Shown here: piece by piece, positions 5,139-63,959 of the stretch
Position numbering within the stretch: position 1 is the stretch's first letter
Layout: every line of letters starts with the position of its first letter
Source: Heptranchias perlo
Lineage: Eukaryota
Length of the DNA: 64,000 bases
Assembly (NCBI RefSeq): GCF_035084215.1
Contig: NC_090333.1
Location: forward strand, 69,502,001-69,566,000
Direction: 5' to 3'
Program-made: the position numbers and the translations under genes
Notes under the pieces: model-generated
What the model was told of the DNA's origin: nothing
What the model saw: only the letters and a program-made list of their open reading frames with translations
Database searches by the model: none

Positions 5139-5570
5139 GTGTGTCAGCTGTGGCTCAGTTGGTAGCACTCATCTGAGTCAGAAGGTCATGGGATCAAGTC
5201 CCACTTCAGAGACTTGAGAATAAAACCTATGCAGACAGTACATTGCAGTACTGAGTGAGCGCTGCACGATCGGAGGTGCAGTTTTTCAGATGAGACATTG
5301 AACAAGGCCCGGTCTGCTCTCAAGTTGATATAAAAGATCCCATGGCACTATTTCCAAGAACAGCAGGGGAGTTCTCCCTGGTGTCCTGGCCAACATTTGT
5401 CCCTCAACTATCACCACTAAAAAACAGACGATCTTGCCATTATCTTATTGCAGTTTGTGGGACCTTGCTTTGCGCAAATTGGCTGCCAAGTTTATAACAG
5501 CGATTACACTTCAAAAGTACTTTTGGACATCCCGAGATAGTGAAAGGTTCTATATAAATGAGTCTTTCTT
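5139..5570 (+). mobile_element. tRNA-derived SINE, SacSINE1/DeuSINE type
   Basis: A box tggctcagttgg, B box ggatcaagtccc, Deu-like central domain (ggaggtgc...agatgagac...aaaagatcccatggcactatt) and an L2-like tail. Confidence 0.85.
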
Positions 5571-9006: not shown

Positions 9007-9372
9007 AAGTCTATAAAATAATGAGGGGCATAGATAAGGTAGATAGTCAAAATCTTTTCCCAAAGGTAGGGGAGTCTATAACGAGGGGGCATAGATTTAA
9101 GGTGAGTGGGGAGAGATACAAAAGGGTTCAGAGGGGCAATTTTTTCACTCAATGGGTGGTGAGTGTCTGGAACGAGCTGCCAGAGGCAGTAGTAGAGGCG
9201 GGTACAATTTTGTCTTTTAAAAAGCATTTGGACAGTTACATGGGTAAGATGGGTATAGAGGGATATGGGCCAAGTGCAGGCAATTGGGACTAGCTTAGTG
9301 GTATAAACTGGGCGACATGGACATGTTGGGCCGAAGGGCCTGTTTCCATGTTGTAAACTTCTATGATTCTAT
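9007..9372 (+). mobile_element. Young 5'-truncated CR1 LINE (3' ~370 bp)
   Basis: Nearly identical (about 9 differences by eye) to 27183-27547. Ends in a ctatgattctat tail. Confidence 0.93.
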
Positions 9373-9759
9373 AATACCAGCAGGAGGAAAGAAAAATAGA
9401 ACAATTTACTTAGTAGCGAGTACCCCCAGGAACTTGATCTGGGTCCTCAAGAATTGGAAGATATCTCACGGCCAATGTGATTGAATGCAGGAGCTTGGTG
9501 AGAATATTTATAAAGGTGCCATTCTGATCAGAGCCCCCATAGCATTCATCCATTGTAGAAGGGTGGAACTTGTTTGGGCTGTATAATGTACACTGTACAA
9601 CCTTGAGTTAGTCCTTGTACATTTTGTGCTGACGATATGTCACTATATTTCTTGCCCTTGCTCTCATTTCCAGGTCGGTCAGAGTTTCTGGGTCTTTTAC
9701 AATTCAGTGTCGCTGGTCACGTCCCCTGCTGTGCAAATGGATTGGAGACACCACCTCAA

Positions 9760-14642: not shown

Positions 14643-17600
14643 TAGGAACATAGGAACAGGAGTAGGCCATTCAGCCCCTCGTGTCTGCTCTGCCATTTGA
14701 TAAGATCGTGGCTGATCTGTGATCTAACTCCATATACCTGCCTTTGGCCCATATCCCTGAATACCTTTGATTGCCAAAAAGCTATCCATCTCAGATTTAA
14801 ATTTAGCAATTGAGCTAGTATCAATTGCCGTTTGTGGAAGAGAGTTCCAAACTTCTACCACCCTTTGTGTGTAGAAATGTTTTCTAATCTCGCTCCTGAA
14901 AGGTCTGGCTCTAATTTTTAGACTGTGCTCCCGACTCCTAAAATCACCAAACAGCGGAAATAGTTTCTCTCTATCCACCCTATCCGTTCCCCTTAATATC
15001 TTATAAACTTCGATCAGATCACCCCTGAACCTTCGAAACTCTAGAGAATACAACCCCAATTTGTGTAATCTCTCCTCGTAACTTAACCCTTGAAGTCCGG
15101 GTATCATTCTAGTAAACCTACGCTGCACTCCCTCCAAGGCCAATATGTCCTTCCCAAGGTGCGATGCCCAGAACTGCTCACAGTACTCCAGGTGCGGTCT
15201 AACCAGGGTTTTGTATAGCTGCAGCATAACTTCTGCCCCCTTGTACTCTAGTCCTCTCGATATAAAGGCCAGCGTTCCATTAGCCTTATTGATTATTTTC
15301 TGCACCTGTTCATGACACTTCAATGATCCATGTACCTGAAACCCCTAAGTCCCTTTGGACATCCACTGATTTTAACTTTTTACCATTTAGAAAGTACCCT
15401 GTTCTATCCTTTTTTGATCCAAAGTGGATGACCTCACATTTGTCTATGTTGAACTCCATTTGCCACAATTTTGCCCATTCACCTAATCTGTCAATATCCC
15501 TTTGTAATTTTATGTTTTCATCTACACTGTTTACAATGCCACCAATCTTTGTGTCATTGGCAAACTTAGATATGAGACTTGCTATGCCTTCATCTAAGTT
15601 GTTAATAATTGTGAATAATTGAGGCCCCAAGACAGATCCCTGCAGGAATCCACTAGTCACATCCTGCCAACGTGAGTACCTACCCATTATCCTTACTCTC
15701 TGTCGCCTTTCGCTCAGCCAACTTCCTAACCAAGTCCGTACTTCTCCCTCGATTCCATGGGCTTCTATCTTAGCTAACAGTCTCTTATGTTGGACCTTAT
15801 CAAATGCCTTCCGGAAGTCCATATAAATAACATCCATTGACATTCCCCTGTCCACTACTTTAGTCACCTCTTCAAAAAATTCAATCAGGTTTGTCAGGCA
15901 CGACCTACCTTTCACAAATCCATGCTGGCTCTCTCTGATCAACTGAAAATTCTCGAGGTGTTCAGTCACCCTATCCTTAATTATAGACTCCAGCAATTTC
16001 TCCACAACAGATGTTAGGCTAACTGGTCTATAATTCCCCGGTTTCCCTCTCTCTCTCCTTTCTTAAAAAGCAGAGTGACATGTGCAATTTTCCAATCTAG
16101 AGGGACAGTTCCTGAATCTAGAGATCTTCGAAAGATTATAGTTCGGGCATCTGCAATCTGCTCACCTGCTTCCTTTAAAACCCTGGGATGGAAACCATCT
16201 GGTCCTGGGGATTTGTCACTCTTTCGTGCTATTATTTTCTTCATTACTATTGCTTTACCTATGTTAATTTTATCGAGTCCCTGTCCCCGATTCAATACAA
16301 GTTTTCTTGGGATTTCCGGCATGCTATCCTCTTTTTCTACCGTAAATACTGACGCAAAGTAATTGTTCAACATGTCCGCCATTTCCCCATCGTCAATGAC
16401 AATATCCCCACTTTCAGTTTTTAAGGGCCAACACTGCTCCTGACCACCCTCTTTTTCCTAATATAACTATAAAAGTTCTTTGTATTGGTTTTGATATCCC
16501 TTGCGAGTTTCTTTTCATACTCTCTTTTTGTAGCTCTTACTATCTGTTTTATGACCTTTTGTATCTTTGTATCTTTCCCATTCGCCAGGATCTGTGCCAT
16601 TTTTTGCCTTTTTGTATGCCCTTTCCTTATGTCTTGTACTGTCCCTTACCTCTAGTTGTCCATGGCTGTTTTTTTTGGCAAGTAGAGTTCTTGCCCCTCA
16701 GGGGTATAAACCGATTCTGTATCACGTTAAATGTTTCTTTAAACATTACCCACAGATCATCAGTCGTTTTACCCATTAACAGATTTGCCCAGTTTACTGT
16801 GGACAGTCTCTGTCTCATCCCATTGAAGTCGGCCTTACCCAAGTCTAGAATCTTAGCAGCTGATTCACTTTTTTCCCTTTCAAACACTACATTGAACTCG
16901 ATCATGCTATGATCGCTATTGGATAGATGTTCACGCACAGTTAAGCCGTTAACTAAATCTGGTTCATTACTCATTACTAAATCTAATATGGCTTGCCCCC
17001 TTGTTGCTTGTAGGACATACTGCTGTAGAAAACTATCCCGGACACATTCAAGAAATTCACTACCTTTCTGACAGTTGCTAGTCTGCTTTTCCCAATCTAT
17101 GTGAAGGTTAAAGTCCCCCATTAAGACCACTATGCCTTTCTTACACGCTTGTCTAATCTCTGCATTTATACAATCTAGCACTTCAGAGCTACTGCCAGGG
17201 GTCCTGTACACAACACTCACTATAGTCTTAGATCCTTTCCTATTTCTCAATTCAACCCATAAGGTCTCTGTTGGCTGCTTACCTCTCGTTATCATTGAAG
17301 TTATCCCTTTATCATTGAAGTGATTTCATCTCTAATCATTAAGGCTACTTCTCCCATTCTTCCATTTTCCCGATCTCTCCTGTAGACCTTATAACCCAGT
17401 ATATTTAGTTCCCAATCCTGACCATCCTGCAGCTATGGCTCAGTAATAGCTATCATGTCTTCCCCTCCAATTTGAATTTGAACCTGTAGTTCATTTAATT
17501 TATTCCTTATACTCCGTGCATTTGTATATAGAACTCTTAGTTGGGCCACACACCCTAGCCTGACCTTCAGCTTTGATGCTGGGTTAATCGCCTTACGCCT

Positions 17601-20856: not shown

Positions 20857-22134
20857 CGATGTAAGGAATCTTACAACACCAGGTTATAGTCCAACAGTTT
20901 TATTTGAAAATCACAAGCTTTCGGAGGCTCTCTCCCTAGTCAGGCGAGTGTGAGATTCCTTGAAGGTTACTGCATATATATAGTCAGAGAACAATGCCTG
21001 GTGATTACAGACAATCTTTCCAACCGCCCGTTGTCAAGGCAATCAGACAGAGACACAGACTTTTCCAGCTTCCACCCTAACCACGTCAAAGAGGCCATCC
21101 CCTATGGACAGGCCCTGCGAATACACAGGATCTGTTCAGATGAGGAGGAACGCGATAGACACCTACAGACGCTGAAAGACGCCCTCGTAAGAACGGGATA
21201 TGACGCTCGACTTGTCAATCGACAGTTCCAACGGGTCACAGCGAAAAATCGCATGGACCTCTTCAGAAGACTTACACGTGACGCAAACAGAGTACCCTTC
21301 GTCGTCCAGTACTTCCCCGGAGCAGAGAACCTGCGCCATGTTCTCCGCAGCCTTCAACATGTCATCGATGACTACGAACACCTCGCTATGGCCATCCCCA
21401 CGCCTCCACTGCTCTCCTTCAAACAGCCACCCAACCTCAAGCAGACCATCGTTCGCAGCAAATTGTCCAGCTTTCAGGAGAATAGCGTCCATGGCGGCCT
21501 CTGCAAGACATGCCAGATCATCGACACAGATACCACCATCACACGAGAGGACACCACCCACCAGGTGCATGGTTCATACTCCTGTGACTCGGCCAACATC
21601 GTCTACCTCATACGTTGCAGGAAAGGATGCCCCGGAGCGTGGTACATTGGCGAGACCATGCAGACACTGACAATGGATGAACGGACACCGCGCAACAATC
21701 GCCAGACAGGAGGGTTCCCTCCCAGTCGGGAAACACTTCAGCAGTCAAGGACATTCAGCCACCGACCTTCGGGTAAGCATACTCCAAGGCGGCCTTAGAG
21801 ACACACGACAACGCAAAATCGTCGAGCAGAAATTGATAGCCACGTTCCGCACCCATGAGGACGGCCTCAACCGGGATCTTGGGTTCATGTCACACTACAC
21901 GTAACCCCACCAGCGAAGGAGGAGTGTTCTCTCTCTCTCAAAGATTGTCTGTAATCACCAGACATTGTTCTCTGACTATAATGCGGTAACCTTCAAGGAC
22001 TCCCACACTCACCTGACAAAGGAGGAAGCCTCCGAAAGCTTGTGATTTTCAAATAAAACTGTTGGACTATAACCTGGTGTTGTAAGATTCCTTACATTTG
22101 TCCACCCCAGTCCATCACCAGCATCTCCACATCA
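20857..22134 (+). mobile_element. Penelope-like retroelement, 5'-truncated: RT thumb, GIY-YIG endonuclease, inverted pLTRs, 9-bp TSD
   Basis: ORF 20950-21798 contains SFHPNHVKEAIPYGQALRIHRICS, CKTC and VYLIRC...WYIGET (GIY-YIG). A frameshifted continuation lies at 21677-21904. 20860-21018 is an inverted copy of ~21941-22096. TSD TTTATAAAT at 20848-20856 and 22135-22143. Confidence 0.94.
22009..22045 (+). ncRNA. Minimal type I hammerhead ribozyme motif in the Penelope 3' pLTR (core G8>A)
   Basis: TCAC-CTGACAA-A-GGAGG-AAG-CCTCC-GAAAGCTT-GTGA. The core deviates from CUGAnGA at one position. Confidence 0.65.
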
Positions 22135-24532: not shown

Positions 24533-25062
24533 ATTAATTCATTAGGGCAGAGCGCTCTTAATTTGGCCAGTTGCACATCAGCCACATTCCAGTGAACTCC
24601 ATCCCATTCCGTCCTGCACAACATGCTGGAAAAGGGGGCTTGGTCTGCATAGGGCAGAGATGAGGAGCTGCAGGAGATTGTAGCTGAGAAGTTGGAGCAA
24701 TCTGTCATAATCCTTTCGCAGCCTTTCAAATGCACTATAATTGAGCTTTTAATGTTTTAAGTAATTACAACATCAGCATTAAGGCAAACAACATGTATTA
24801 AAAAGGAGCAGTATGCCCTGATTAACTGTATCGTCACTAATTTATTGATCATGCAACCAACACCTTTTAGAATTGAAACTATTGGATTATGACAGTGCTC
24901 CAACTTCTCAGCTACAATCTCCTGCAGCTCCTCATCTCTGCCCTATGCAGGCCAAGCCCCCTTTTCCAGCATGTTGTGCAGGATGGAGTGGGATGGAGTT
25001 CACTGGAACGTGGCTGATGTGCAACTGGCCAAATTAAGAGCACTCGGCCCTAATGAATTAAT
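24533..25062. repeat. Long inverted repeat: arms 24533-24713 and 24884-25062, 170-bp spacer
   Basis: The arms are reverse complements with about 6 substitutions and one 2-nt indel, counted by eye. Confidence 0.95.
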
Positions 25063-25104: not shown

Positions 25105-27655
25105 CATAAGAACATAACAAACAGGAGCGGGAGTAGGCCATACGGCCCCTCGAGCCTGCTCCGCCATTCAATAAAATCATGGCTGATGATCTACCCAACT
25201 GCACTTTCCTGCCCGATCCCCATGTCCCTCGATTCCCCTAGAGTCCAAAAATCTCTCGGCCTTCAATATACTCAACGACTCAGCATCCACAGCCCTCTGG
25301 GTAGAGAATTGCAAAGATTCACAACCCTCAGTGAAGAAATTCCTCATCAGTCTTAAATGGCCGACCCCTTATCCTGCGACTATGCCCCCTAGTTCTAGAC
25401 TCTCCAGCCAGGGGAAACAACCTCTCAGCCTCTGCCCGGTCAAGCCCCCTCAGAATCTTGTTTCAATGAGATCACCTCTCATTCTTCTAAACTCCAGAGA
25501 GTATAGGTCCATTCTACTCAATCTCTCCTCATAGGACAACCCTCTAATTCCAGGAAACAATTTAGTGAACCTTCATTGCACCCCCTCTAAGGCAAATATA
25601 TCCTTCCTTAGATAAGGAGACCAAAATTGTACACTGTACTCCAGGTACAGTCTCACCAAAGCCCTGTACAACTGTAGCAAGACTTCCTTGCTCTTGTACT
25701 CCAACCCCCTTGCAATAAAGGCCACCATGCTATCCGCCTTCATAAAGGGCAAAAGGGTAACTAGGGAGAGAGTAGGGCCTCTTAAGGATCAAGAAGGTCA
25801 TCTATGTGCGGAACCACAAGAGATGGGTGAGATCCTGAATGAATATTTCACATCGGTATTTACGGTTGAGAAAGGCATGGATGTTAGGGAACTTGGGGAA
25901 ATAAATAGTGATGTCTTGAGGAGTGTACATATTACAGAGAGGGAGGTGCTGGAAGTCTTAACGCGCATCAAGGTAGATAAATCTCCGGGACCTGATGAAA
26001 TGTATCCCAGGACGTTATGGGAGGTTAGGGAGGAAATTGCGGGTCCCCTAGCAGAGATATTTGAATCATCCACCGCTACAGGTGAGGTGCCTGAAGATTG
26101 GAGGGTAGCAAATGTTGTGCCTTTGTTTAAGAAGGGCGGCAGGGAAAAGCCTGGGAACTACAGACCAGTGAGCCTGACATCTGTAGTGGGTAAGTTGTTA
26201 GAGGGTATTCTGAGGGACAGGATCTACAGGCATTTGGAGAGGCAGGGACTAATTAGGAACAGTCAGCATGGTTTTGTGAGAGGAAAATCATGTCTCACGA
26301 ATTTGATTGAGTTTTTTGAAGGGGTAACCAAGAAGATAGATGAGGGCTGTGCAGTAGACGTGGTCTACATGGACTTCAGCAAAGCATTTGACAAGGTACC
26401 GCATGGTAGGTTGTTACATAAGGTTAAATCTCATGGGATCCAAGGTGAGGTAGCCAATTGGATACAAAATTGGCTTGACGACAGAAGACAGAGGGTGGTT
26501 GTCGAGGGTTGTTTTTCAAACTGGATGCCTGTGTCCAGCGGTGTGCCTCAGGGATCGGTGCTCGGTCCGCTGTTATTTGTTATTTATATTAATGATTTGG
26601 ATGAGAATTTAGGAGGCATGGTTAGTAAGTTTGCAGATGACACCAAGATTGGTGGCATTGTGGACAGTGAAGAAGGTTATCTAGGATTGCAACGGGATCT
26701 TGATAAATTGGGCCAGTGGGCCGATGAATGGCAGATGGAGTTTAATTTAGATAAATGTGAGGTGATGCATTTTGGTAGATCGAATCGGGCCAGGACCTAC
26801 TCCGTTAATGGTAGGGCGTTGGGGAGAGTTATAGAACAAAGAGATCTAGGAGTACAGATTCATAGCTCCTTGAAAGTGGAGTCACAGGTGGATAGGGTGG
26901 TGAAGAAGGCATTCAGCATGCTTGGTTTCATTGGTCAGAACATTGAATGCAGGAGTTGGGATGTCTTGTTGAAGTTGTACAGGGCATTGGTGAGGCCACA
27001 CTTGGAGTACTGTGTACAGTTCTGGTCACCCTATTATAGAAAGGATATTATTAAACTAGAAAGAGTGCAGAAAAGATTTACTAGGATGCTACCGGGACTT
27101 GATGGTTTGACTTACAGGGAGAGGTTAGACAGACTGGGACTTTATTCCCTGGAGAGTAGGAGGTTAAGGGGTGATCTTATAGAAGTCTATAAAATAATGA
27201 GGGGCATAGATAAGGTCGATAGTCAAAATCTTTTCCCAAAGGTAGGGGAGTCTATAACGAGGGGGCACAGATTTAAGGTGAGAGGGGAGAGATACAAAAG
27301 GATCCAGAGGGGCAATTTTTTCACTCAAAGGGTGGTGAGTGTCTGGAACGAGCTGCCAGAGGCAGTAGTAGAGGCGGGTACAATTTTGTCTTTTAAAAAG
27401 CATTTGGACAGTTACATGGGGAAGATGGGTATCGAGGGATATGGGCCAAGTGCAGGCAATTGGGACTAGCTTAGTGGTATAAACTGGGCGACATGGACAT
27501 GTTGGGCCGAAGGGCCTGTTTCCATGTTGTAACTTCTATGATTCTATAATTGCTTGCTGTACCTGCATGCTAACTTTGTTTCTTGTATGAGGACACCCAA
27601 GTCTCTGAACATTTAATAGTTTCTCACCATTTAAAAAATATTCTGCTTTCCTGCA
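25105..27655 (-). mobile_element. Older CR1 3' end (25105-25741 and 27550-27655), split by a younger CR1
   Basis: Tail cataagaacataa...ggagtaggcc at ~25106. The antisense ORF2 C-terminus resumes after the insertion (gccttc-ataa / ataa-ttgcttgctgtacctgc). Confidence 0.88.
25742..27547 (+). mobile_element. Young 5'-truncated CR1 LINE with an uninterrupted RT reading frame
   Basis: Open frame to the stop at 27469: SPGPD, NYRPVSL, QHGF, YMDFSKAFDKV, PQGSVLGP, FADD, RPHLEY. The first ~18 aa of the called 593-aa ORF come from the flanking antisense CR1. Confidence 0.96.
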
Positions 27656-27742: not shown

Positions 27743-27863
27743 CATGATGTGGAGATGCCGGTGATGGACTGGGGTGGACAAATGTAAGGAGTCTTACAAC
27801 ACCAGGTTATAGTCCAACAGCTTTATTGGAATCACAAGCTTTCGGAGCTTTCCTCCTTCATCA
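27743..27863 (-). mobile_element. Short Penelope pLTR-derived insertion with a 5'-clipped hammerhead motif
   Basis: The minus strand reads TGATGA-A-GGAG-GAAAG-CTCC-GAAAGCTT-GTGA...ccatcaccggcatctccacatcatg, homologous to 22014-22134. Confidence 0.88.
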
Positions 27864-28400: not shown

Positions 28401-29053
28401 ATCTTACTTCAATAAGCCACCTTCAGGAAGAAGTAAAACATTCACAGACTTTTAAAAACTTGGCTTTACACCAGGTTGCAGTTATACTATTAACTTTTTT
28501 CTGAACAAAACTCTCACATTGGATAGATAGCTTGGTTGAAACCAAGGTGGTTATTAATGGAAGTGAATCATCCTGGGCCCTAGTCACAAGAGGAGTACCA
28601 CAAGATACCATTGCAACTATTATTCATCATTTTAATTAGAGTCACATCAGGACAGAAGGAGGACAGACTTGCATTTTGAGCTCTCACAACCTCAGGACAT
28701 CCCACAGCCAATGAAGTACTTTTGATGTGCAGTCACTTTCAATGTAGGAAACAAGGCAGTCAATTTGTACACAGCAAGGCCAAACAGCAATTAGATAAAT
28801 GGCCAGATAATCTGTTTTAGTGATGTTTGTGAGGGATAAACGTTGGCCAGGACACCGGGATAACTCCCAAGCTCTTCTTCGAATACTGCCATGGGATCTT
28901 TTATCTCGAACCAAGAGGACAGGCAGGGTGTCAGTTTAACCTCTCATCCGAAAGACTGCACCTCCGACAATGCAGCACTCAGTGCTGCACTGAAGTGTTA
29001 GTCTAGATTATGTGCTCAAATCTCTGGAGTGAGGCTTGAAGCCATGACCTTCT

Positions 29054-29184
29054 CACACCACCTGAGGAAGGGGAAAGCCCCCGAAAGCTTGTGGGATTAA
29101 AAATAAAATTGTTGGACTATAACTTGGTGTTGTAAAATTGTTTACAATTGTCAACCCCAGTCCATCACTGGCATCTCCACATCA
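29054..29184 (+). mobile_element. 131-nt Penelope pLTR-derived insertion with a 5-bp TSD
   Basis: Homologous to 22005-22134. CTTCT is duplicated at 29049-29053 and 29185-29189. Confidence 0.88.
29058..29094 (+). ncRNA. Minimal type I hammerhead ribozyme motif with an intact core
   Basis: CCAC-CTGAGGA-A-GGGG-AAAGC-CCCC-GAAAGCTT-GTGG: stem I CCAC/GTGG, core CUGAnGA...GAAA, stem II GGGG/CCCC, palindromic helix III AGCT. Confidence 0.75.
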
Positions 29185-30554
29185 CTTCTGACTCAGAGTG
29201 GAGTATACTACAACAGAGCCACAGCTGAGAAAAATCTATAGATGCAGGCTGACAGACAAGTTAGGGGAAATCAGCCTGTGTAGAAGTTGTGGACAAATGC
29301 AGGTCATGCAATTGGGGTTAGGAAACTCCAGGCATGTTTATACCATGTAGGCTTACCTGTTCAGGTAAGAGATCAGGAAAAAGTCCTGAGAAGGAATAAC
29401 TAATCATTCAATGAATCTTTTAGATCATCTCAGTGCAATTTTTAAGCTGGGAAGAGACTCGTATGGAATAGAGACCTGTTGGGCTGAATGGCATGTGTCT
29501 GTGCTGTATAATTCTATGGAACTTAGGAGTAGCTTTTTATTGAGGGACACCAATTCCAAAACTTGTGTTTTAAGTGGCATTTGAAAGTGTACATATTACA
29601 TCACACCCCATCCATCCCACAATTTCAAGGGGATAAATAATTTTCTTGTTCCTTTTCAGTATCAGTTCAAGCACCAAAAAATCTAATCTCCACCTAGCAC
29701 TTAACTAATGCTCTTAAGGGATTTCATTTGTCTTCAATCTCATGCAGACACACTAAAACAACAGCTTTACTCCTTCACTGCAGGTGGTTTAAGTGGACGA
29801 TGAACTCGAATTCTGAGCAAGGATTAATGCTTTAGGATTCTCTAATGGTCGCACGCAGTACACCTGGGACTTTGCCTTTTGAAAACAGCTGTCACCTGTA
29901 CAGAAATCATCTGTTGCATAACTACCCGGGGACTTTTACAAAACCTTGGCTTACAACGTGGCCTTGCTCTCGCGCACTGCTCAGGGTCAAAATAAGCAGA
30001 TTACGTAATAGTAATCTGTCGGAAAACCACATTCCCTCACTATACTAAGAGACTCATTAAATGCACACAGGCAGTATTCCATGCTCATTTTTTCAAACAT
30101 TTTTGGCATCGCAGAGCAGAACGGGGTTCAAAGACCCCATCCTTTCCCCACCCTTCTCAAGATCTTTGAGTGGCATCCATGCCAACATAGAAAACAAGCA
30201 AAAGGTGTCCAACAGCTTCAAACATAAACAGCCCTGAATATAAGCAGATGACGTGTGACAGCAATGCATTGCACTGAAAGTGCAGCGGGACCTGGATTTG
30301 TAACCCAATATTTCATTTATTCTTATTGGAGGAAATAAAAAAAAGTACATGAGAGCCTGAATGATGAGATAGCAATCTCTTCTGCCAGTGGTAATAATCT
30401 GAAGTGGAATGAACTGAGGCAGTATCAACTTGGTTTTTCTTATGCATCAGCCCACAGCACAAAGCTGCCAATGATGGGAATAAATTCACAATATGTTCAC
30501 AATTTCACTCATACCATATACAAACCAAACCGTACTCTGTGCCTGGCCTATATG

Positions 30555-32699: not shown

Positions 32700-33295
32700 A
32701 AAGCAAAAACAGCATGCAGTTTATATAGTGCCTTTCGTCAAGCTCAGGAAATAAAAACAGAAAATACATGAAAACGCTCAGCAAGTCAGGCAGCATCTGT
32801 GGAAAGAATGTTTCAGGTCTGATGACCCTATCCTGCTCTCCACAGATACTGCCTGACCTGCTGGGTGTTTCCAGCATTTTCTACTTTATTTCAGCTTTCC
32901 AGCGGTAATTTGGAAGTACTTTTGAAGTGTAGGCACCATTCCAGAGGCATATGCTGCAGCCAATTTGCACACAGCAAGGTCTCTCAAACAGCAATGAGAT
33001 AAGTGACTAGTTAATCTGTTTTGGCTGTGTTGGTTGAGGGATAAATGTTGGTCAGGACACAGAACTTCTCTGCTCCTCTTCAATTGGTGCCATGGAATCT
33101 TTTACATCCACCTGCACAGGCAAAAGATAATTCACGTTTAATGTCTCACCTGAAAAACAGCACCTCAGACAGTGCAGCACTCCCTCAGTACTGTAGAAGT
33201 GTCAGCTTAGATAACATGCTCAAGTCCTGGAATGGAACTTGAGCCTGCAACCTGCTGACTCAGAAGCAAGAGTGCTTTCACCAAGCCGAGCTAAC
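32700..33295 (-). mobile_element. SacSINE1-type SINE, interrupted by a hairpin element
   Basis: Antisense tail, Deu domain and tRNA head. Insertion at ~32749-32905. Confidence 0.82.
32749..32905. mobile_element. Small fold-back (MITE-like) element
   Basis: Imperfect ~55-bp inverted arms at 32749-32803 and 32839-32891. Decayed relatives at ~53095-53250 and ~62605-62715. Confidence 0.75.
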
Positions 33296-44289: not shown

Positions 44290-46190
44290 GACAGAGCTAA
44301 GCAGTTCCACAACCAACGGATCAGATCAAAGCTCTGCAGTCCTGCCACATCCAGTCATGAATGGTGGTGGACAATTAAACAACTAACGGGAGGAGGAGGC
44401 TCTGCAAACATTCCCATCCTCAATGATGGTGGAGTCCAGCACGTGAGTGCAAAAGACAAGGCTGAAGCGTTTGCAACCACCTTCAGCCAGAAGTGCCAAG
44501 TGGATGATCCATCTCGGCCTCCTCCTGATATCCCTACCATCACAGAAGCCAGTCTTCAGCCAATTCGATTCACTCCACGGGATATCAAGAAACAGCTGAG
44601 TGCACTGGATACAGCAAAGGCTATGGGCCCTGACAACATGTAGTGCTGAAGACTTGTGCTTCAGAACTAGCTGCGCCTCGAGCCAAGCTGTTCCAGTACA
44701 GCTACAACACTGGCATCTACCCGACAATGTGGAAAATTGCCCAGGTATGTCCTGTCCACAAAAAGCAGGACAAATCCAATCCGGCCAATTACCACCCCAT
44801 CAGTCTGCTCTCAATCAGCAAAGTGATGGAAGGTGTCGCTGACAGCGCTATCAAGCAGGACTTACTCACCAATAACCTGCTCACCGATGCTCAGTTTGGG
44901 TTCCGCCAGGACCACTCGGCTCCAGACCTCATTACAGCCTTGATCCAAACATGGACAAAAGAGCTGAATTCCAGAGGTGAGGTGAGAGTGACTGCCCTTG
45001 ACATCAAGGCAGCATTTGACAGAGTGTGGCACCAAGGAGCCCTAGTAAAATTGAAGTCAATGGGAATCGGGGGGGGGGGGGGGAACTCTCCAGTGGCTGG
45101 AGTTATACCTAGCGCAAAGGAAGATGGTAGTGGTTGTTGGAGGCCAATCATCTCAGCCCAAGGACATTGCTGCAGGAGTTCCTCAGGGCAGTGTCCTTGT
45201 TCCTCAGGGCAGTGTCCTTGGCCCAACCATCTTCAGCTGCTTCATCAATGACCTTCCCTCCATCAAAAGGTCAGAAATGGGGATGTTCGCTGATGATTGC
45301 ATAGTGTTCAGTTGCATTGGCAACCCCTCAGATAATGAAGCAGTCCGAGCCCGCATGCAGCAAGACCTGGACAACATCCAGGCTTGGGCTCATAAGTGGC
45401 AAGTAACATTCGCACCAGATAAGTGCCAGGCAATGACCATCTCCAACAAGAGAGAGTCTAACCACCTCCCCTTGACATTCAACGGTATTACCATCGCCGA
45501 ATCCCCCACCATCAAGATCCTGGGGGTCACCATTGACCAGAAACTTAACTGGACCAGCCATATAAATACCGTGGCTACGAGAGCAGGTCAGAGGCTGGGT
45601 ATTCTGCAGCGAGTGACTCACCTCCTGACTCCCCAAAGCCTTTCCACCATCTACAAGGCACAAGTCAGGAGTGTGATGGAATACTCTCCACTTGCTTGGA
45701 TGAGTGCAGCTCCAACAACACTCAAGAAGCTCGACACCATCCAAGATAAAGCAGCCCGCTTGATTGGCACCCCATCCACCACCCTAAACATTCACTCCCT
45801 TCACCACCGGCACACTGTGGCTGCAGTGTGTACCATCCACAGGATGCACTGCAGCAACTCGCCAAGGCTTCTTCGACAGCACCTCCCAAACCCGCGACCT
45901 CTACCACCTAGAAGGACAAGAGCAGCAGGTACATGGGAACACCACCACCTGCACGTTCCCCTCCAAGTCTCACACCATCCCGACTTGGAAATAAAACGCC
46001 GTTCCTTCATAGTCACTGGGTCAAAATCCTGGAACTCCCTTCCTAACAGCACTGTGGGAGAACCTTCACCACACGGACTGCAGCGGTTCAAGAAGGTGGC
46101 TCACCACTACCTTCTCAAGGGCAATTAGGGATGGGCAATAAATGCCAGCCTCGCTAGCGACACCCACATCCCATGAACGAATAAAAAAAA
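44290..46190 (+). mobile_element. Jockey-group (CR1/L2-related, distinct family) LINE, 5'-truncated, nested in a CR1
   Basis: ORF pieces with KAMGPD, NYHPISLL, QFGFR, ALDIKAAFDRVWH, PQGSVLGP and FADD. 3' UTR gggcaattagggatgggcaataaatg...aataaaaaaaa. Confidence 0.9.
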
Positions 46191-62754: not shown

Positions 62755-62858
62755 TTTGTTTTAACTTCTCTTTCAGGGATTCATCAAGGATTTAAGAATT
62801 ATGTTGCTGCAATGAAATTGTTCCTCCAAAACGGACATGGAGAGATGAACTGACCATC
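62755..62858 (+). other. APOBEC4: Splice acceptor and 5' UTR part of the APOBEC4 coding exon
   Basis: Polypyrimidine tract ttttaacttctctttcAG (AG at 62775-62776), 82 nt before the ATG. Consistent with a non-coding exon 1 plus a coding exon 2, as in mammalian APOBEC4. Confidence 0.7.
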
Positions 62859-63959
62859 ATGGCTACTACTTATGAAGAATATATTGCTCCTCGGGGAACA
62901 CTGGTGAAGCCTTACTATTGGTTGCCTTTCAGTGAAAGGTGTCCAAAATGCCCATATCACATCAAAACTGGGGAAGAAGCCCGTGTTTCTTACGTGGAAT
63001 TTTATGAAACTTTTGGGTTTCCCTATGCTCAGCCACAGTCTGGCAGGCATCTGGTCTTCTATGAACTGAAGTTGTCATCTGGTACTTTAGTGCAGAAAGG
63101 ACACATAACTAACTGTACTTTATACCACCTTCATCCAGAATCCATGTTCTTCGAAATAGATGGCTATCTGGATACACTCATGGACTCCTACGATAACATT
63201 GCTTATATTACCCTCTACTCCAATTACACCCCGTGTAATGAAAGAGCCCACTACTGCATAAACAAACTGCAGGACTTCTTAGTAAATTATCCCAGCACTA
63301 GGTTGGATATTTATTTCTCTGCACTCTATCATATTGATGATTACTTTTCTGAATCTGGATGGAATAAAGAAGCTCTCCACAATTTGGCAGCACTTTGGCC
63401 TAGGGTGACCCTTAATCCCATCAGTAGTGGGACATGGCTGACTATTTTGCACAGGTTTGTGAATGGTGTGCCTCGGACAACACTTTACAACCCAGTTTCA
63501 CCTGAAAGAGCTTTCGCGGACTTGAGCAATGCCGATCAGATAGTTGCCATCACTGGAGTTAACCCTTCTTACCTAGACGTCGTGCCCCAGGTAAAACAAC
63601 ATCAAAAGCAACATTTCAAACCAGAAATCGTGAACTTATATCCCTTTTCACAAGCACTGCCTCCAATTCTGAATGGAATGGCATTAATATCTCCACATCA
63701 ACCATACATGAATCTTCCAAACATGCTGGCATTGCCTTTGTCTATGTACCCATTTCAAACACAGAACATTAAACCGAAGAATGTTGTGAGACATCTGAAT
63801 ATGCCCGATGCATCCAAATGGAAAAAACCAGCAACCCCATTACCACGCAACGTACAACTAACTGAAATAGTCGAAGTTTTTGAAGTTCCTGTGAAAAGAT
63901 CAACCAATTCAAAGAAACCAAGGAAGACAGGGAAAAAGAAAAAATCTACAAGGGATTAG
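62859..63959 (+). CDS. APOBEC4: APOBEC4, AID/APOBEC-family zinc-dependent deaminase-like protein (366 aa, single coding exon)
   Basis: Intact ORF with a strong start context (ATCATGG). It has the Zn motif HPE (H92/E94) ... SNYTPCNERAHYC (PCx6C spacing typical of APOBEC4), the N-terminal CPYHIKTGEEARV, the C-terminal VRHLNMP and a Lys-rich tail, all matching recalled APOBEC4 sequences. Confidence 0.96.
   Translation: MATTYEEYIAPRGTLVKPYYWLPFSERCPKCPYHIKTGEEARVSYVEFYETFGFPYAQPQSGRHLVFYELKLSSGTLVQKGHITNCTLYHLHPESMFFEIDGYLDTLMDSYDNIAYITLYSNYTPCNERAHYCINKLQDFLVNYPSTRLDIYFSALYHIDDYFSESGWNKEALHNLAALWPRVTLNPISSGTWLTILHRFVNGVPRTTLYNPVSPERAFADLSNADQIVAITGVNPSYLDVVPQVKQHQKQHFKPEIVNLYPFSQALPPILNGMALISPHQPYMNLPNMLALPLSMYPFQTQNIKPKNVVRHLNMPDASKWKKPATPLPRNVQLTEIVEVFEVPVKRSTNSKKPRKTGKKKKSTRD

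Follow-up and report, generated by a model that had tools for sequence, protein, structure and literature searches.

A 131-nt insert in the DNA of Heptranchias perlo is probably, at a rough probability of three in four, a run-off product copied from the initial ~135 bases of a young Penelope-like element's own mRNA. The insert lies in a window of 64,000 nt (contig NC_090333.1, positions 69,502,001 to 69,566,000), which is the whole stretch of DNA that was analysed. It is predicted to run from just after the transcription start of the parent element to the A of the ATG that opens the parent's open reading frame (ORF). Positions within the insert are numbered from 1 (29054) to 131 (29184), such that C3 of the ribozyme is position 9 and the predicted cut falls between positions 37 and 38. 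The features of the insert, its surroundings, and its relatives are as follows.

28714..29235, minus strand: older, dispersed host repeat, split by the insert (right end approximate)
29049..29053, plus strand: left target-site duplication CTTCT, exact repeat
29054..29184, plus strand: the insert, 131 nt, pLTR end of a Penelope-like element, predicted 5' UTR
29058..29094, plus strand: minimal type I hammerhead motif (descriptor search, fold, covariation)
29058-61/29091-94, plus strand: stem I, CCAC/GTGG
29062-68, plus strand: core CTGAGGA
29069, plus strand: bulged A
29070-73/29079-82, plus strand: stem II, GGGG/CCCC
29083-86, plus strand: GAAA
29086-89, plus strand: palindrome AGCT, helix III remnant; predicted cut after T29090
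29149..29184, plus strand: ~36-nt "tail" between two putative RT start sites (placed from the inverted arms of sibling copies and the model in the available part of PMC11167929)
29185..29189, plus strand: right target-site duplication CTTCT, exact repeat
20860..21045, minus strand: inverted arm, without tail, of the older insertion at 21059..22134
21059..22134, plus strand: older-subfamily copy, 5'-truncated, with ORF end and pLTR; its hammerhead (22009-22045) is broken
27745..27863, minus strand: second short stub, of older type, insert positions 10-131, without stem I and C3
L121:2258-4963, minus strand: ORF of 901 aa at a full-length sibling locus, RVT_1 E 4.5e-10

When the insert and one CTTCT are removed, the host repeat, which we take to be SINE-like, is collinear with a copy at 5144-5385. 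Thus, the CTTCT duplication is real and the insertion is a true one, and both the 131-nt insert and its duplication lie where a preliminary description of this DNA had placed them. The duplication is 5 bp long, compared with a median of 12 bp in short copies of the family (58 copies, and again in 61 copies). A loose scan for duplications yields 4-5 bp by chance (control median 4), so what counts in favor of the 5-bp duplication is where exactly it lies, together with the collinearity of the host repeat. Its atypical length probably reflects trimming at the 5' join.

What is the insert derived from? The idea that it is a distinct sequence was considered and rejected: the insert is the 3' end of a long Penelope-like subfamily, which bears out the earlier claim of a Penelope-derived retro-insertion. 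In the 3.25 Gb of genome searched, the last 45 nt of the insert have 383 exact matches in the window's variant and 20,676 in the common variant, and a 56-mer of an older subfamily is matched exactly 6,369 times. Of 787 candidates, 40 were scored, and all of these are 98-100% identical to the insert; the 29 nearest siblings among the matches listed comprise 14 long and 15 short copies. The closest sibling among the matches listed (L002) differs by one CpG-type base; it is long and ORF-bearing, with 1 kb of element and a 2.6-kb inverted arm. The family looks to have been active recently. A full-length, intact partial tandem is found at locus L121, where 826-nt pLTRs that are 98% alike lie around the 901-aa ORF. 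Both L121 pLTR ends are 93% identical to the insert, and the ATG of the ORF begins at insert position 131. With its single RT ORF and its pLTR repeat, L121 has the make-up of a partial-tandem Penelope-like element. By eye, its protein has a GIY-YIG-like motif (VYLI...WYIG), with no GIY-YIG match in Pfam at E<=0.05, and a C-x4-C-x2-C linker motif before the endonuclease region. In the available text of PMC8557442, this linker is common to Neptune and Nematis; the linker motif, which is the sole basis of the clade label, points to an L121 element of Neptune/Nematis type. L121 sits in a minisatellite. Contigs from four runs of a single sample, possibly of RNA origin, were aligned to L121, one contig showing a 130-nt back-joint; since contigs reveal neither a start nor a level, they were left out of the interpretation.

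One indication of how the short copies arise is the position of their 5' ends. Copies were selected on the last 45 nt only, by taking the first 100 of the 383 matches and the first 90 of the 20,676; one duplicate was removed and six copies were reclassed as long by eye, giving a sample of 189. The 5' position of a copy is the most 5' point reached by its forward or its inverted arm. Stops at -11 to +11, a span of 23 nt, account for 92 of the 171 copies at risk, where the upstream rate would lead one to expect 6.8% (P about 2e-60), and the edge is seen in both sample sets (49/100 and 44/89). When positions are counted from a TATA-like box, which lies outside the insert, the starts of 55 of 121 short copies fall at +27 to +32; 4/121 start at +21 to +26, 16/121 at +26 or earlier, and 32/121 at +33 to +46. 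This is a sharp edge followed by a trimmed tail, and it lies at the distance from TATA box to start that is usual for polymerase II. The copy in the window starts at +32, within the +24 to +32 range of the 16 short copies in its close group. In the window's own subfamily the box is degenerate, and short copies there start slightly earlier. Counted from the ribozyme, starts spread over -9 to +3; the TATA-anchored peak is tighter because the spacing between box and ribozyme differs among subfamilies. The edge follows the TATA-like box, not the ribozyme cut site, and we infer that it is the transcription start in the upstream pLTR. As far as the available parts of the sources go, transcripts of Penelope-like elements begin in the upstream pLTR (PMC2377424, PMC8557442), and rotifer pLTRs have a TATA box with an Inr (PMC3846280). 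A search of the open literature found no report of short copies that start at the transcription start. The coverage plots in Fig. S2 of PMC11167929 may show the same edge.

The 3' ends of the copies are informative about the template. Among the 120 short copies, 90 carry an inverted arm. In 81 of the 90 this arm begins between insert positions 89 and 101 (~93-95 in sibling copies), which is ~36 nt short of where the forward arm ends. For PAc in vitro, the accessible text of PMC11167929 explains such a tail by two RT start sites and the cutting of both strands. Copies that end 4-30 nt inside the ORF start make up 38 of 189, compared with 1 of 189 in the control; hence, ORF-start sequence followed the pLTR on the template. 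These endings occur in both classes (25/120 short, 13/69 long), so they do not separate short from long. PMC11167929 describes a requirement of the RNA for ORF sequence 3' of the RT start. The cut site is passed by 108 of 120 short copies, meaning that the usual template was uncut; uncleaved RNA is also the dominant substrate in vitro (PMC11167929, in the part available). Starts downstream of the edge are found in 11/189 copies at positions 38-60 and in 6/189 at positions 12-37. Eight of these 17 starts fall at 38-45 (P 0.003, for a window chosen post hoc), a hint that such copies were made from cleaved templates. Genome-wide hairpin searches (745 and 1,103 sites, with 50 of each viewed) revealed many joins at short palindromes within this AT-rich stretch; since joins at short palindromes are common there, the cleaved-template group is unproven.

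How might such a stub be made? Transcription would start at the 5' edge in the upstream pLTR, and the RT/endonuclease would load where pLTR and ORF meet, close to the mRNA's 5' end. Both DNA strands would be nicked about 12 bp apart, cDNA would be initiated at two sites (insert positions ~131-145 and 95), and the RT would run off the 5' end of the uncut RNA after ~135 nt. One arm would yield a plain stub like the insert in the window, and two arms would yield the head-to-head hairpin that three in four short copies show. Such a stub is predicted to be a dead end because it has neither the TATA-like box nor the ORF-start sequence behind the RT start. The Drosophila Penelope promoter is described in the available part of PMC2377424 as internal, so transcription of a stub beginning at the start site is conceivable in principle. 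Several points weigh against the run-off reading: the transcription start is deduced from DNA, the TATA-like box is degenerate in the window's own subfamily, 16 of 121 short copies start at +26 or earlier, and the duplication in the window is 5 bp rather than 12. In the parent element, the hammerhead would perhaps serve regulatory cleavage of part of the mRNA rather than template making; control of translation by a ribozyme is a lead taken from the accessible part of a paper on viral ribozymes (PMC13725137). A bolder proposal, which we regard as tentative and on the whole doubtful, is that the stubs record a Penelope "strong-stop" cDNA. Synthesis would always start at the 5' pLTR/ORF junction and run off at the capped end, and template jumps from there would build the partial tandems as well as the first retrozyme-like arrays. 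The starts just after the cut site would then be copies of ribozyme-cleaved RNA, and would be the first in vivo sign of a minimal Penelope hammerhead cutting.

Could the 5' edge be set by something other than the end of the RNA? The RT, copying a long read-through RNA, might stall or resolve just past stem I owing to the ribozyme fold or to a bound protein. In all subfamilies the edge is at most ~15 nt upstream of stem I, close enough for a structure effect to be possible, and the PAc ribozyme requires bound protein to cleave, according to the available text of PMC11167929. However, one would expect a polymerase arriving from the 3' side to stall ahead of a hairpin rather than after unwinding it. 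The ribozyme fold is also weak (z -0.98), and the ribozyme is a looser anchor for the edge than the TATA-like box, which places 55 of 121 starts within 6 nt. We consider this explanation unlikely. It is very improbable that the insert is simply a full-length Penelope-like copy truncated at random from the 5' end. Penelope-like copies are often 5'-truncated (PMC8557442, in the part available), and 69 of the 189 sampled copies are indeed long with scattered 5' ends, but the clustering of 92 of 171 stops in 23 nt, replicated in two samples, is far from random. The preliminary description had named the 5'-end distribution of the short copies as a check, and the outcome refutes random truncation for the family; for the copy in the window taken alone, truncation is the less likely origin.

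The preliminary description had suggested a non-autonomous, ribozyme-headed family resembling SINEs or retrozymes and mobilized by the Penelope RT. On such a reading the stubs would be an independent family, with transcription from an internal promoter of its own and mobilization in trans through the Penelope protein. The high copy number and the non-random 5' ends would fit such a family, as would the internal promoter of Drosophila Penelope (PMC2377424) and the proposal that non-LTR retrozymes derive from pLTRs (bioRxiv 10.64898/2026.07.22.740005), both as given in the available parts of those sources. However, the 5' ends of the stubs are ragged over ~20 nt rather than fixed, and the stubs do not carry the ORF-start sequence that the related enzyme requires on its RNA (PMC11167929, in the portion seen). 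A family with short masters should have diagnostic variants of its own, but 13 of the 16 young shared ribozyme haplotypes are present in both long and short copies. For example, the window's own haplotype occurs in four short and four long copies, and a single base separates the window's copy from a long one. Three haplotypes, all with C at N7, are found in short copies only (16 copies). The lineage with C at N7 is short-biased (30/37 compared with 66/123; Fisher P 0.004, post hoc), but it has long members, and the bias may reflect some source copies that are defective downstream. One locus, L288 (G000:C13, ~53.555 Mb), has an inverted arm and four head-to-tail 143-nt units within a single duplication, each unit beginning at the predicted start and ending slightly beyond the ATG; it is possibly the seed of a retrozyme-like array. 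Genome-wide, however, head-to-tail short units amount to 9 matches at 7 loci, compared with 20,676 3' ends. With haplotypes shared, the nearest sibling long, and tandems rare, the proposal of a separate family is not supported, and we consider it quite unlikely.

The ribozyme itself is a minimal type I hammerhead. A descriptor for minimal hammerheads found one intact motif in the window (at 29058) and gave 0 matches in 100 doublet shuffles. The motif has the CUGANGA core, GAAA, U16.1-H17, stems I and II, and the palindromic helix III that define the class. Both stems are recovered in the minimum free energy fold of the insert, the stability of which is ordinary. An Rfam scan of the window returned no hammerhead match at E<=1, probably because the minimal motif is below the reach of the models. 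The hammerhead was thus correctly recognized at 29058-29094 in the preliminary description, which had omitted the bulged A29069; in the accessible part of PMC4209133, a bulge is typical of minimal hammerheads in Penelope-like pLTRs. Self-cleavage of the motif is a prediction from its sequence. Related minimal motifs cleave poorly or not at all as monomers (PMC4209133 and PMC11167929, as far as their available text goes), and the related PAc ribozyme, as mentioned above, cleaves only with its bound protein.

Is the ribozyme under selection? Compensatory double substitutions had been claimed for both stems relative to the copy at 22009-22045. This holds only in part: stem II has one compensatory pair and one lost pair, and the core of the comparison copy is broken by G8>A at 22018. 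A wider comparison used 190 forward arms spanning the ribozyme, which fall into 60 haplotypes, 20 of them shared by at least two copies. The older subfamily, with 30 of its 6,369 matches sampled, was used for ribozyme variants only, the reference panel being a poor fit to it. Pairing is seen in 98.9% of the 180 cells of the 20 shared haplotypes, four of the nine pairs change on both sides, and G-U intermediates connect the paired states. The covariation score is 0.311, compared with 0.224 when shuffled (0/500), and slid controls pair at 35-49%; the haplotype sequences are related, so this result counts as support and carries no probability. None of 11 core positions varies, compared with 14 of 26 others (P 0.002), but the 3' half of the core is the extraction anchor, which leaves just the six 5' core positions as a free test; none of the six varies, whereas N7 does. 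Loci with C at N7, for example L105, L114, L228, and L274, are mostly short copies. These patterns point to a hammerhead under selection in the parent Penelope-like element. Long copies carry the same ribozyme variants, so selection acts in parent or source elements. Hence, the earlier suggestion of selection on RNA structure stands insofar as both stems covary across subfamilies, but the selection belongs to the parent element and not to a separate family.

How does the insert compare with known systems? The comparisons that follow extend as far as the available portions of the cited papers. The minimal hammerheads of metazoan Penelope-like pLTRs described by Cervera and de la Pena (2014, PMC4209133) share the short stem I, the bulge after A9, the G10.1-C11.1 pair, and the palindromic helix III remnant. 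They, too, form families with a covarying consensus, and occur mostly as single motifs, which were attributed to truncated elements; the start positions of single-motif copies are unmapped in that portion, whereas a TATA-anchored edge is found here. Endonuclease-bearing elements of Neptune/Nematis type (PMC8557442; PMC3846280) share the partial tandem of pLTRs, an RT followed by a C-terminus that here is GIY-YIG-like by eye, and the cysteine motif in the linker, together with the inverted 5' arm, the 30-40-nt tail, the pLTR TATA and Inr, and duplications of ~8-12 bp. The family described here differs in that its ORF begins precisely where the tail ends, with the ribozyme wholly in the predicted 5' UTR, and in that about six in ten sampled copies are stubs of the pLTR end.

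Poseidon PAc of Anolis (Frangieh et al. 2024, PMC11167929) is similar in having two RT start sites that bound the tail, cutting of both strands, an uncleaved RNA template, and an RNA element at the pLTR/ORF junction. In contrast, the PAc ORF starts in stem II, and the RT starts lie 111-118 nt within the ORF. For genomic copies, the consulted part of that paper describes 3' ends but not run-off 5' ends. Non-LTR retrozymes (Cervera and de la Pena 2020, PMC7229834; bioRxiv 10.64898/2026.07.22.740005) share the type I hammerhead and a short, non-coding, pLTR-related unit, and one four-unit array is present here. They differ in forming tandem arrays with mostly canonical ribozymes that are expressed as circles. 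Unlike them, the insert in the window is a monomer with a minimal motif, and the ends of the unit are not at the cut site. Assignment of the insert as a tandem non-LTR retrozyme was considered and rejected, given that it is a monomer and that head-to-tail units are rare genome-wide. A review (PMC6765202) served, in the part available, as general background only. Published work already covers this class of element, along with the motif, the tail, and the inverted arms; the additions made here are the TATA-anchored edge, the ORF-start extensions, and the sharing of haplotypes between long and short copies.

What are the implications of the stubs? They bear on how pLTRs are rebuilt and on the role of the hammerhead in Penelope-like elements. 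Should the edge be the transcription start, a single step of the reaction would be recorded thousands of times in the genome, and the ribozyme would lie at the very 5' end of the mRNA and be copied uncut nine times in ten. A ribozyme that is copied mostly uncut would not define the template. Reading the edge in this way also leads directly to predictions for the in vitro system that already exists. As a caution, such stubs should not be filed as a new SINE family.

The window contains three further pieces related to the insert, at 22004-22134, 20860-20952 (inverted), and 27745-27863. The older insertion to which the first two belong, an inverted arm plus a forward copy (20860-22134), is flanked as a whole unit by a 9-bp duplication. 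Elsewhere in the window, a 387-aa stop-to-stop frame (62796-63959, plus strand) contains an AID/APOBEC-like deaminase domain (Pfam NAD1 E 4e-24, APOBEC4 E 4e-20) and is probably an exon of a host gene. A hairpin at 32770-32871 (minus strand) has a weak match to an Rfam microRNA family, at 35 bits compared with a cut-off of 100, and is probably a plain inverted repeat. A ~530-bp element at 24533-25062 has long imperfect inverted arms that are 81% alike, and is MITE-like by appearance. LINE-like reverse-transcriptase frames are found at 25616-27469 (plus), 45055-46128 (plus), and 15310-16062 (minus), and the stretches 9007-9375 and 27183-27550 are 97.6% alike, representing a young 3' end.
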